The notes: generated from the letters alone by a model not told the origin. A stretch of DNA of 64,000 nucleotides from a plasmid (NZ_CP049261.1), one strand, 5' to 3'. Counted from the first letter of the stretch, positions 10,667 to 13,574 are shown. Made by a program: numbers and translations.

Positions 10667-13017
10667 ATGAGTCGGACCGATACGCTTAAAAATACCCTGG
10701 CTGCGCTAACGGGAAGCAGGTTGAACCGCTACCGTCTGGATATTCCGTCATGCCCTTCATTACTGGATGTCGAAGATTTTAGCGGCGTCGAGGCAATGAG
10801 CCAGCTCTACCACTATGACATCCGGTTCACCAGCAGCGACCTTAACATTGATGCCACGCAGCTGCTGAGCAAACCGGCCACGCTGACCATGGGTGCCGGC
10901 CCACTGACGGGGCTGGTTGAGCAGAATGTGGTGCACGGCGTGGTGACGCACTTTAAGCGTATCAGCGGCTCACGCGACCAGGCGACATACCAGATTAGTA
11001 TTGAGCCGTTTCTGGCGCTGCTCGGTAATCAGTTCCGCACCCACCGCTTTTTCGTCAATAAATCAGTACCGGAAGTGGTGGAGCAGATCCTCCGGGAACA
11101 CGGCCTGCACGAGTGGGAATATGAGTTCCGCCTTAAACAGGTTTATCCGCCGCGTGAGCAAATTAATCAGTACCAGGAAAATGACCTGGCGTTTATCGAA
11201 CGTCTGCTGTCTGAGCTGGGAATATTTTATTTCTTTACCCTGCAACCAGACGCCAGGACGGAGGTGGTGCATTTTGCCGACAGGCAGAGCGCCTGGCAGT
11301 TTGGTAAAACACTGCCGCTGAACAGCCCGTCAGGCGCGCATGACAACGGTGTGGATTCGGTGTGGGGCGTGAGTGTACGGCACAACGTAGTCGAACGCAG
11401 CGTGACGGCCAATGATTACAACCACCGACAGGCGCAGAAAATACTGATGTCCGCCCCGGCGGATATGACCCGGGGCGACGGAGAGGGCGTCACTTACGGC
11501 GATGTATATCACTATCGTCCGCGCCATCTTGAGCGAGGCGACAAACTCGATCCAGCAGCGGAAACCGGAAATTTCTGGGCGCGGCTGGAGCATGAGCGTT
11601 TTCTGTCTGAGCAGACCCGCGTAACTGGCAGCAGTACCGACCATACGCTGAGCCCGGCACAGGTGCTCACCATTACTGAGACCGCCATTCCGCCGACGCT
11701 GCCGGATGAGATCGACAATGGCGTCGTCATTATCAGTGCCGGTTACTCTGCCAGCCGTAAAAATGCACTGCACGTGGCGTGGGTGGGAATGCCCTACAGC
11801 GAAACAGTGTGCTGGCGTCCGCCGTTGCTGCCGCGCCCGAAGGTCAGCGGCACCATGACGGCCCGGGTGACCAGCGCCCGGCGGGGGATATCTACGCCTG
11901 GCAGGACGCGGCCGGTCTGTACCGGGTGAAGTTTGACGCAGACCGTGACGACAAATCGCCCGGCCAGGAGAGCATGCCGGTACGCCTGGCGAAACCCTAC
12001 GGCGGGGACGTGTACGGGTTTCACTTCCCGCTGATACAGGGCACGGAGGTGGCGATAGCCTTTCACGAAGGCGACCCGGACCGGCCATATATCGCCCATG
12101 CGCTGCACGATTCGCGCCATCCGGACCACGTGACGGAGGCGAACAACACCCGCAATGTGATACGCACGCCGGCCAACAACAAGCTGCGGATGGAGGACAG
12201 ACGCGGCGAGGAACATATCAAACTCAGTACGGAGTACGGCGGCAAGTCGCAGCTTAATCTGGGACATAACGTGGATGCGGGGCGGTCACTGCGTGGCGAA
12301 GGCGCAGAGCTGCGCACCGACAGATGGGTGAGTATCCGCGGCGGCGCCGGGGTGTTTATTACGGCGGACAAGCAGTCAGCGGGCGATAAAATGCTTTCCA
12401 TGAAAGAGGCGATTGCGCAGCTGGAGAACGCGCTGAGCATCGCGCGGAGCCTGTCGGATGCGGCAGAAAGTGCAGACGCGCTGCCGTCGGATATCCGGAG
12501 CCAGGTGACGCTGACGAACGCCCTTAAAGACCTGGTGAAACCGGGGATGGTGCTGAATGCGCCGGAAGGGGTGAGCATCACCAGCCCGCAGGCGGTGCGC
12601 GTGGCGTCCGGCAGCGCGAGCGTGGGGATAATGTCTCAGCAGAACACGGACATCAGCGCCCTGAGTCGCGTTACGGTGGCGGCGGGTGAGGCGGTGAGCG
12701 TGCTGGCGAAACAGGCTGGTATGAAGCTGTTTGCGGCGAAAGGGAAAGTGGAAATCCAGGCGCAGGATGATGCGCTGGAGGCGCTGGCCAAAAAGGAAGT
12801 CACCGTCACCAGTACGGAAGGTCGGGTGGACATCACGGCGGCAACAGAACTGGTGATTAACTGCGGGGCGCCTATATCCGGCTCAGCGACGGAAATATCG
12901 AACTGGGATGCCCCGGAAATATTTTACTCAGATCAACGAATGCGCAAAAAATGTCTCCTTATGAATACAAGGGAAACAGCTGGTCAAAATCGGGCAAGGG
13001 AAACGGAGTTATTTTAA
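10667..13017 (+). CDS. vgrG: T6SS spike protein VgrG. Frameshift near 11875-11890.
   Basis: AAGGAG RBS before ATG 10667. N-terminal gp27/gp5-like region. The C-terminal half (..VKFDADRDDKSPGQESMPVRLAKPYGGDVYGFHFPLIQGTEVAIAFHEGDPDRPYI..) is classic VgrG. The pieces 10634-11929 and 11779-13017 are offset by one base. Confidence 0.85.
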
Positions 13018-13574
13018 GAAATCAGTATGGCGATCCGGTAAGAGATGCGAATGGTAATATCGTCTATGAGATGGAGGAAAGTAAGCGGCCTTCTCCGGAG
13101 GTTATGAAAAAGGCATTGCAGGCTCAGAAAGAGATGCTGCTTAAGAGGAAAGCCGAACTGGAACGCTGGAGCGAAGAGGATCAGAAAGCCTTTAAAAAAG
13201 CGTTTGGACGTACAGATGATGCTTCCAGAAAAAAGATCGCTGCTGCGGTTGACAAAGAAATCGAACTCAACGACTCAATGTCCTACGATAACTTCAAGTT
13301 TGCCGATCAGAATGTACATGCATATGTTTTTCAAGGAGACACAGAGGACCATTTTATCTATATAGGTAATAAATTTTCTGGAGATCCTTTAACTGGCCCG
13401 GATTCTCAGGTAGTGACTCTCAGCCATGAAATGTCACATTATAATGATGTTTTGGGAACTGATGATATAACTATCGGAAATATGGATTTTGAGAAAGCTG
13501 CGATTAATTTTGCGCAAGACTGTTCAGATAATGCGCTTGATAATGCTTATAACTTTGAAAGGTATTTTCAATGA
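12951..13574 (+). CDS. Aspzincin (M35/deuterolysin-like) metallopeptidase toxin domain. Probably the C-terminal extension of VgrG, joined across the A6 run at 12944-12949.
   Basis: ..VVTLSHEMSHYNDVLGTDDITIGN.. matches the HExxH-x(n)-GTxD aspzincin signature. No RBS precedes ATG 12951 (cgcaaaaaATG). The VgrG frame ends 22 codons later. AT-rich. Confidence 0.55.
   Translation: MSPYEYKGNSWSKSGKGNGVILRNQYGDPVRDANGNIVYEMEESKRPSPEVMKKALQAQKEMLLKRKAELERWSEEDQKAFKKAFGRTDDASRKKIAAAVDKEIELNDSMSYDNFKFADQNVHAYVFQGDTEDHFIYIGNKFSGDPLTGPDSQVVTLSHEMSHYNDVLGTDDITIGNMDFEKAAINFAQDCSDNALDNAYNFERYFQ

Follow-up and report, generated by a model that had tools for sequence, protein, structure and literature searches.

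An aspzincin (M35) metallopeptidase domain at the C-terminus of a plasmid-encoded VgrG of Cronobacter sakazakii, probably split by two missing bases

We analyzed a 64,000-nt stretch of the plasmid NZ_CP049261.1 (hereafter the window), with the focus on positions 10667-13574, where the vgrG gene of a type VI secretion system (T6SS) runs into a sequence encoding a metallopeptidase domain. The molecule is a pESA3-like IncFIB virulence plasmid of Cronobacter sakazakii, and the gene forms part of its T6SS cluster, with tssB/C/K/L, tagL, hcp and clpV upstream and a PAAR gene and a tssJ remnant downstream. Clusters of this type are flanked by gntR and dsbG, have a mosaic content and are well documented (PMC7074816). 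We found no effectors of the pESA3-type T6SS locus described in the literature searched.

As sequenced, the vgrG reading is not continuous. The open reading frame (ORF) called mechanically at 11779..13017 stops 22 codons beyond a run of six adenines (A6) at 12946-12951, and the sixth A is the first base of an ATG at 12951. This ATG opens an ORF of 207 codons (12951..13574) that contains SHEMSHYNDVLGTDDITIG, and no AGGAG-like or Shine-Dalgarno-like site is present in the 20 bases before it. An earlier reading of the sequence (the original prediction) had described this arrangement, and every element of the description is confirmed: the A6 run, the ATG at 12951, the stop at 13017, the missing ribosome-binding site and the 207-codon ORF with its HEMSH and GTDD motifs. 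It proposed that a single-base slip at the A6 run conceals a fusion between VgrG and an aspzincin toxin.

The frame of the ATG at 12951 is open upstream to 12861 and encodes there the conserved VgrG tail AYIRLSDGNIELGCPGNILLRSTNAQKM. Its upstream translation reads (L)RGAYIRLSDGNIELGCPGNILLRSTNAQK-M-SPYEYK, and the end of the DUF2345 beta-helix in other VgrGs of Cronobacter and other enterobacteria reads ...INCGGAYIRLSDGNIELGCPGNILLKSLNVQKMG... Because this frame encodes a tail that is seen in other VgrGs, Met 12951 is a conserved VgrG residue and not a start codon as had been assumed. It corresponds to the Met of the VgrG motif N(A/V)QKM(G/S), and the Met of QKMG is kept even in VgrGs with other C-termini. 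The Pfam DUF2345 profile is shared between the two frames: the 11779 frame matches positions 3-119 and the 12951 frame positions 119-150. The switch occurs at tgcGGGGcgcc (12865-12868), where VgrG homologues read INCGGAYIRLS. From this G-run on, 81 nt before the A-run, the 11779 frame is no longer the true VgrG frame. What it encodes beyond that point, 27 codons up to the A-run (APISGSATEISNWDAPEIFYSDQRMRK) and another 22 to the stop, is out-of-frame noise. The stop at 13015-13017 also ends a shortened VgrG of 784 aa in three draft loci (L004, L015 and L016).

The window was compared with 13 draft C. sakazakii loci that contain vgrG (L004-L016) and with two complete plasmids (L022 and L023). 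Relative to these 15 loci, the window alone lacks one G at 12865 and another at 11880. The A-run does vary in length between strains, as A6 was found in L002, L003, L005-L016, L022 and L023 and A5 in L004 only, where it breaks the fusion. A6 is nevertheless the in-frame state and not the lesion of this window: both intact plasmid alleles have it, as do 12 of the other 13 draft loci with vgrG. The idea that missing single bases hide a fusion therefore stands, with the site moved from the A6 run to the G-runs at 12865-12868 and 11880-11881. Restoring both Gs yields one unbroken ORF, 10667..13574, which encodes 969 aa and whose start matches the start annotated in L005 and L022.

The restored protein presents, in order, Phage_GPD (residues 42-363, 191 bits), Phage_base_V (407-480), T6SS_Vgr (500-600), a complete DUF2345 (617-765, positions 3-150 of 151, 154 bits) and Aspzincin_M35 (837-968), with no TTR domain between spike and toxin. 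The toxin is out of frame with the VgrG core as sequenced, owing to two frameshifts, and in frame once the two Gs are restored, as it is in the intact alleles. An in-frame deletion of 3 nt at 12371-12375 also separates the window from all other loci (ADKQSAGDK vs ADKQPSAGDK), and it is for this reason that the restored protein counts 969 rather than 970 residues. We consider it very probable that 10667-13574 is a single gene for an evolved VgrG with an aspzincin toxin domain, split here by two missing Gs that are most likely assembly errors.

The gene is intact in other genomes. The C. sakazakii plasmids pCrono589-1 (NZ_CP080592.1, WP_076738023.1) and pCsaC79b (NZ_CP049145.1, WP_148737381.1) each carry an uninterrupted vgrG coding sequence of 970 aa with G5 and A6, 98.0% identical to the restored protein, and both alleles sit in complete clusters. 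Orthologues in Cronobacter turicensis (970 aa, 86.1% identity) and Cronobacter muytjensii (965 aa, 75.5%) align end to end with it and keep the junction N(A/V)QKMSPYEYKxNSWSKSGKGNG; the former also matches TIGR01646 and TIGR03361. Outside the genus, a 909-aa VgrG-M35 protein is encoded by the Neisseriaceae bacterium TC5R-5. The domain is thus found in frame on homologous VgrGs, and the peptidase is a C-terminal toxin domain of an evolved VgrG, as originally suggested. The alternative offered with that suggestion, a separate cargo effector next to VgrG, is not supported for Cronobacter, where in-frame alleles exist.

A further VgrG-M35 fusion is apparent in P0105 (1035 aa), its VgrG part being judged by eye. 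The same toxin module is fused to PAAR in P0026 and P0032 (Enterobacter cancerogenus and metagenomes) and in P0189, and, again as judged by eye, it is carried by the Rhs protein P0182. The PAAR-M35 gene of E. cancerogenus GCA_021649995.1 (L001, 7533-8900) is degraded: an in-frame TAG separates PAAR from M35, and HEMSH is changed to HEMSQ; metagenomic P0026 and P0032 are intact proteins of 299 aa. Our first protein search returned no full-length fusion, and the intact alleles came from tracing the immunity gene described below and from a plasmid search, which overturned the provisional view that no intact allele exists. The search of GTDB species representatives for related loci found no relatives, the representative genomes evidently lacking the gene, and E. 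coli genomes contained the generic VgrG part only (about 80% identity). In RefSeq, the intact protein is labelled simply VgrG with no mention of a protease, and the broken fragments are named "M35 family metallo-endopeptidase".

The toxin domain belongs to the aspzincin family M35, in agreement with the original assignment. The 207-aa ORF matches Pfam Aspzincin_M35 (PF14521) with 49.9 bits (cut-off 30; E = 6e-13) over profile positions 6-141 of 142. Searched against PDB sequences, the profile of the toxin family retrieved AsaP1 (4.5e-36), GfMEP (2.5e-33) and deuterolysin (1.2e-10), and no match to the C-terminal domain of VgrG2b, the metallopeptidase-bearing VgrG of Pseudomonas aeruginosa. An AlphaFold2 model based on an alignment of 19 sequences reached a mean predicted local distance difference test score of 88.4 and a predicted template modelling (TM) score of 0.84. 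Its top seven Foldseek matches in the PDB were AsaP1, GfMEP and deuterolysin, all with probability 1.00; for AsaP1 and GfMEP the TM-score was 0.62 when normalized by the query and up to 0.77 when normalized by the target, with a root-mean-square deviation of 2.2-2.8 Å. A toxin of the VgrG2b type (DUF4157) was also considered and is ruled out by sequence, fold and ligand type (Asp, not Glu): the 207-aa ORF has no match to PF13699, and the VgrG2b C-terminal fold does not appear among the PDB folds recovered.

An exhaustive HMMER search yielded 616 relatives, 163 of them at E < 1e-10. The zinc ligands and the catalytic Glu are near invariant across 154 aligned homologues, as are the neighboring loop residues (H159, E160, H163, T170 and D172 in the numbering of the 207-aa ORF). 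Counting non-gap positions, the HExxH residues are conserved in 147/148 (H), 148/148 (E) and 148/149 (H) sequences, and about 145 homologues keep the residues of the aspzincin loop to various degrees (T in 140, D in 143, G in 127 and Y in 117). In the arrangement HEMSH-YNDVL-GTDD, the Asp that provides the third ligand follows the second His by nine residues. Poor conservation of the motif among homologues, which the original prediction named as grounds for rejecting a peptidase, is thus not observed.

The next gene, whose start codon overlaps the toxin stop, encodes the presumed immunity protein. It begins with a Sec-type signal peptide (MKMIILYMFLAFLTITGESMA), and similar hydrophobic N-termini were found in the homologues of C. 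turicensis, C. muytjensii (two paralogues) and Neisseriaceae; several annotations miss the signal peptide because a later start was chosen. The gene directly follows VgrG-M35 in C. turicensis, C. muytjensii and the Neisseriaceae bacterium, so that the same position is occupied in four taxa. By BLASTP the ORF matched P0203 (2e-9), and no Pfam or NCBIfam model covers it.

Profile comparison with hhalign related the immunity family to the propeptide family of AsaP1-type proteases (96.9% probability, E = 1.5e-10, 118-126 columns), and reversed and 24 column-shuffled controls gave at most 0.3%. Used alone against the propeptides, the Neisseriaceae protein scored 97.5% and the window protein 91.3%. 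The propeptide profile itself matches AsaP1 residues 10-167 at 8e-34. Searching PDB sequences directly with a hidden Markov model of the immunity family returned nothing, and a single-sequence search returned only noise. The 152-aa gene that follows the PAAR-M35 gene of E. cancerogenus belongs to the same immunity family (95.1%). At the level of profile-to-profile similarity, the immunity protein is homologous to the M35 propeptide. In the zymogen structure of AsaP1, the propeptide covers the active-site cleft.

Table 1. Positions in the window of the segments, frame breaks and motifs of the vgrG-M35 gene, of the immunity gene and of example single-base deletions.
Feature	Coordinates	Strand	Remarks
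vgrG 5' segment (gp27-like Phage_GPD), frame 1	10667..11879	+	Pfam Phage_GPD, 193.7 bits
First break, GG for GGG (one G missing)	11880..11881	+	CCC-GGCGGGGG here vs CCCGGGCGGGGG in L004-L016, L022 and L023
vgrG middle segment, shifted frame	11880..12864	+	gp5 OB fold (Phage_base_V); T6SS_Vgr, 99.7 bits; DUF2345, 112.8 bits, positions 3-119 only
Second break, splitting off the toxin, G4 for G5	12865..12868	+	AACTGC-GGGGCGCC here vs AACTGCGGGGGCGCC in 15 other loci including the intact alleles
True end of the DUF2345 beta-helix (AYIRLSDGNIELGCPGNILLRSTNAQK)	12869..12950	+	same frame as the 207-codon ORF; DUF2345 positions 119-150; identical in the intact alleles
Out-of-frame read-through of ORF 11779..13017 (APISGS...RMRKKCLLMNTRETAGQNRARETELF*)	12869..13017	+	not a real protein tail; peptide without homologue
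A6 run	12946..12951	+	correct in-frame length, no lesion; last A is base 1 of codon Met763
C-terminal extension of VgrG, residues 763-969 as restored	12951..13574	+	short linker, beta-hairpin and aspzincin M35 domain (Pfam match 13173-13568)
HEMSH	13425..13439	+	two zinc-binding His and catalytic Glu; H921, E922 and H925 in restored numbering
GTDDITIG	13455..13478	+	aspzincin loop (GTDD, 13455-13466); third zinc ligand Asp, D934 restored; family Tyr replaced by Ile
Immunity gene, 226 aa	13571..14251	+	ATG overlaps toxin TGA (ATGA); N-terminal Sec-type signal peptide; homologue of the AsaP1-type M35 propeptide
Example deletion sites	838, 3338, 3392, 4199, 4581, 6681, 7894, 10125, 11880, 12865, 21814, 22725, 25771, 28217, 39124, 54118		

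Several observations on the active site, on the immunity family and on other C. sakazakii lineages weigh against reading the locus as a functional toxin gene that was split only during sequencing. The full family signature GTxDxxYG is not found, since its Tyr, a residue of importance for catalysis in AsaP1 (Y309), is replaced by Ile175. In the C-terminal motif NADNFEY, NADN(H/F)EY in the family, Tyr200 takes the place of the Asp, and the residue of GfMEP equivalent to this Asp, D154, forms part of the Lys-binding S1' pocket together with E157. We know of no T6SS effector of family M35 for which proteolysis has been shown. In addition, the 152-aa immunity homologue of E. cancerogenus has no signal peptide as called, which makes periplasmic action uncertain for the whole family. 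Lesions of the toxin gene itself are frequent in other C. sakazakii lineages: an AGA to TGA change at 13227-13229 (R93*) in L005-L014, which leaves a VgrG of 855 aa and a remnant of 98 aa; a G deletion at 12992 in L015 and L016; the A5 of L004; and a deletion of 4.7 kb from clpV into vgrG in L002 and L003. Finally, the two G deletions of the window could themselves be real, and a true pseudogene would be unsurprising in the window lineage, from which tssM, tssF and tssG have been lost.

The two substitutions covary perfectly. The loop Tyr is missing from each of the 11 family members that have Tyr at the second site; of the 114 members that keep the loop Tyr and have a residue at the second site, 111 carry Asp at that site. 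If these residue roles of AsaP1 and GfMEP apply, the active site of the Cronobacter/Enterobacter subfamily is probably rearranged and its specificity altered, and activity or specificity may differ from those of the classical M35 enzymes. Specificity for Lys is doubtful because the equivalent of the S1' Asp is a Tyr.

In its strongest form, the pseudogene explanation holds that both G deletions are real and that vgrG-M35 is decaying in a cluster already deprived of tssM, tssF and tssG, with the immunity gene alone still functional. The independent toxin lesions of other C. sakazakii lineages favor it, as do the deletion of tssM/F/G common to the window and L004-L014, the immunity ORF that is intact in all loci examined and the mosaic nature of the pESA3 T6SS locus in published PCR surveys, with vgrG in 55% of isolates (PMC7074816). 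What stands against it is the distribution of the deletions. Within positions 1-23.5 kb, about 14 single-base homopolymer deletions occur in the window alone when each site is compared with the other loci spanning it (1 to 13 per site); almost all of them fall in G or C runs. These deletions break tssC, tssK, tssL, tagL, clpV and vgrG. An iron-chelate ABC permease is altered at its end and a DUF7480 lipoprotein gene is hit as well, so that genes outside the T6SS are affected too. Between 16 and 60 kb, about 37 single-base deletions oppose 4 insertions relative to pCsaC79b; beyond about 29 kb their uniqueness to the window is not established because pCsaC79b is the only reference there. Altogether, the window contains about 50 such deletions, and the two in vgrG fit this general pattern (about 50 deletions to about 4 insertions, nearly all in homopolymers) of consensus error rather than mutation. 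Neither is shared by any other assembly. Such a strong deletion bias confined to homopolymers is a signature of consensus error, and we therefore rate an assembly artefact as the probable cause of the split. Real decay of the window's allele appears unlikely, yet it retains some weight because the toxin has been inactivated by other means in other lineages. Frameshifts and "split genes" reported anywhere in this window are to be regarded with suspicion.

Two further explanations fare worse. In the first, there would be two separate genes, one for a VgrG of the 784-aa type that stops at 13017, the other for an M35 cargo effector of 207 aa whose translation starts at the ATG at 12951 and which is loaded non-covalently onto the spike. 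L004 is annotated with two such genes (VgrG of 784 aa and M35 of 207 aa, WP_319738849.1), and members of the VgrG2b family from E. coli PAR and P. aeruginosa PS42 have VgrG, DUF2345 and toxin in split arrangements (PMC10673891). This explanation is highly improbable for the present locus: there is no ribosome-binding site ahead of 12951, the Met at that position is conserved in the VgrG tail (QKMG), also where other C-termini follow, and in-frame alleles are intact in the same species and two sister species. Moreover, the 784-aa ending "KCLLMNTRETAGQNRARETELF" has no homologues and arises from frameshifts alone (A5 or the G deletion at 12992), and the module boundary, as placed by the PAAR-M35 relatives, lies about 15 residues past the Met. 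Phase variation by slipped-strand mispairing at the G and A runs, or programmed ribosomal frameshifting, would turn the toxin on or off on the spike. Three short runs within 130 nt do vary in length from strain to strain (G4/G5 at 12865, A5/A6 at 12946 and G2/G3 at 12992), but these runs of 3-6 bases are shorter than is usual for phase variation, each variant is restricted to one lineage or one assembly, and other lineages are inactivated by a nonsense codon or large deletions. The G4 of the window also fits its general error profile, and no slippery heptamer or downstream structure was apparent, although no search was aimed at them. We consequently rejected this explanation as unsupported, with scarcely any probability left to it.

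Repeated loss of the toxin while the immunity gene (13571-14251) is intact in every locus looks like the loss of an effector with its immunity kept. In L005-L014, the 970-codon frame is open throughout except for the single TGA. The partial proteins of L002 and L003 join a ClpV fragment in frame to IRLSDGNIELG...M35. Many draft genomes of C. sakazakii contain this 4.7-kb deletion (window 8067-8150 to 12875 onward), which fuses a clpV fragment to the last 30 vgrG codons and M35. The resulting proteins include P0001, P0010, P0012-P0014 and P0017, and longer partial ones also have an internal clpV deletion. All of these contigs begin inside the clpV fragment, and an assembly-graph effect at a repeat is possible.

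The cluster of the window is itself incomplete. At a deletion junction at 16121/16123, the window lacks several kb that L002, L003 and the intact plasmids have (about 3.6 kb in the comparison with L002 and L003), and with them tssM, tssF, tssG, the 5' end of tssJ and the 3' end of a gene of 385 aa. An ORF of 274 aa (15333-16157) and a TssJ remnant of 107 aa (16189-16512) are left at the junction. The same junction at 16121-16123 is found in L004-L014 and is therefore real, so the T6SS of this plasmid cannot be complete. Without these genes the local T6SS is unable to fire unaided, and in this plasmid lineage the toxin gene may have been left as a stranded relic.

Just upstream of vgrG, 9327-10301 holds a second metallopeptidase effector-immunity pair. 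An HExxH protein of 184 aa, found intact in C. turicensis (L018, 1791-2345), is present here in pieces, as the ORFs 9327-9545 and 9610-9921, the latter with IHEMSHVWQ. The intact protein has a weak match to PF13699 (eCIS_core; 20.7 bits vs a cut-off of 22). We take this family to be the renamed DUF4157, that of the VgrG2b C-terminal domain. The adjacent gene, 9915-10301, encodes a DUF7480 "putative T6SS immunity periplasmic lipoprotein" and is broken by a missing C at 10125. The effector gene of the 184-aa type is also split in most C. sakazakii loci. Downstream, 14346-14993 encodes a DUF2931 lipoprotein with an indel-rich patch that diverges between lineages (14906-14970), and 15063-15329 encodes a stand-alone PAAR protein that is followed by a membrane protein without family (385 aa when intact). 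The region 14346-16157 may be a second spike-associated module. At that position, C. turicensis (L018) presents a second vgrG with genes for a Tle1-like lipase and DUF2931.

Returning to the reading of a single vgrG-M35 gene with its immunity gene, what we infer of its delivery, compartment of action, proteolytic activity, substrate and mode of inhibition would be as follows. At the tip of the Hcp tube, a VgrG trimer would present three toxin domains, sheath contraction would drive this tip into a neighboring Gram-negative cell, and the protease would act in the periplasm. The translationally coupled downstream gene would protect the producer. Its exported product, which would derive from the propeptide of an M35 zymogen, probably blocks the active-site cleft in trans as the AsaP1 propeptide does in cis. 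We give about an even chance to the full proposal that the immunity protein is an exported descendant of a propeptide, the pair having come from a split pro-protease, and that the toxin belongs to a subfamily in which the Tyr has moved from GTxDxxYG to the S1' Asp site (NAYNFERYF), with a predicted specificity other than Lys. If such a split occurred, the catalytic domain would have been mounted on VgrG or PAAR and the inhibitor domain kept at home. No description of a propeptide-derived immunity protein or of the moved-Tyr subfamily was found in the literature searched.

These results illustrate that one gene split by an assembly error can look like two genes on either side of a homopolymer, and that the culprit run need not adjoin the apparent start. 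They also place an aspzincin toxin on the spike of the T6SS of the C. sakazakii virulence plasmid, a locus that is surveyed in food-safety genomics. The homology between immunity protein and propeptide suggests a testable route from a secreted zymogen to a T6SS effector-immunity pair, for which pro-AsaP1 offers a ready structural model of how the immunity protein may act. Finally, the repeated inactivation of the toxin next to a universal immunity gene provides a clear example of effector loss with immunity retained.

The VgrG-M35 described here is an uncharacterised protein of an already known kind of system. The original prediction regarded protease toxins on VgrG as uncommon; they may be rarer than lipases or nucleases, but they are not new, as VgrG2b (PMC6899460) and PF14521 effectors (bioRxiv 10.64898/2026.09.28.754971) illustrate. 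VgrG2b (PA0262, with the immunity protein PA0261) of P. aeruginosa is toxic in the periplasm, and this toxicity is abolished by the E-to-A mutation of HExxH (Wood et al. 2019, PMC6899460). It resembles the present protein as an evolved VgrG in which DUF2345 precedes a C-terminal HExxH zinc metallopeptidase, with a small immunity gene directly downstream. In contrast, the VgrG2b domain is a thermolysin-like gluzincin (DUF4157) whose third ligand is Glu983, whereas the domain studied here is an aspzincin that uses the Asp of GTxD, and VgrG2b has a TTR linker that the VgrG of the window lacks. Wang et al. 2023 (PMC10673891) call the VgrG2b domain "M35", a designation that is unsupported by the structure of Wood et al. 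The PF14521 effector T6EC12 of Methylocaldum szegediense is a T6SS effector that is toxic to E. coli and attenuated by mutations of the catalytic center or HExxH; its immunity protein is predicted to cover the cleft and is described as unrelated to others (bioRxiv 10.64898/2026.09.28.754971). By its description, T6EC12 is alike in being a PF14521 T6SS effector in which HExxH has a nearby Asp. It differs in being a stand-alone cargo with a two-domain scaffold that is not carried on VgrG, and it is toxic in the cytoplasm, in the periplasm and in yeast.

The closest counterparts are the intact Cronobacter alleles, which share with the window gene its position in the pESA3-type T6SS cluster, the five Pfam domains, the junction NAQKMSPYEYKGNSWSKSGKGNG and the downstream immunity gene. 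They differ from it by G5 at 12865, GGG at 11880, one extra codon near 12371 and the retention of tssM, tssF and tssG. Outside Cronobacter, the closest toxin domain is that of the 299-aa PAAR-M35 proteins (P0026 and P0032; 57-60% identity). These have the same subfamily signature (no Tyr in the GT.D loop; NAYNFERYF), a T6SS cluster and a homologous immunity gene next in line, with the toxin module mounted on PAAR instead of VgrG. Among enzymes of known structure, the peptidyl-Lys metalloendopeptidases AsaP1 of Aeromonas salmonicida (2x3a/2x3b/2x3c) and GfMEP of Grifola frondosa (1g12) are M35 members with the same fold and the same HExxH...GTxD zinc site. They keep the Tyr of GTxDxxYG and the Asp of NADN(H/F)EY, which are Ile and Tyr here. 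Both are Sec-secreted zymogens with the propeptide in cis, whereas in the system described here the catalytic domain is carried on the T6SS spike and the propeptide-like protein is encoded separately, with a signal peptide that would direct its export.

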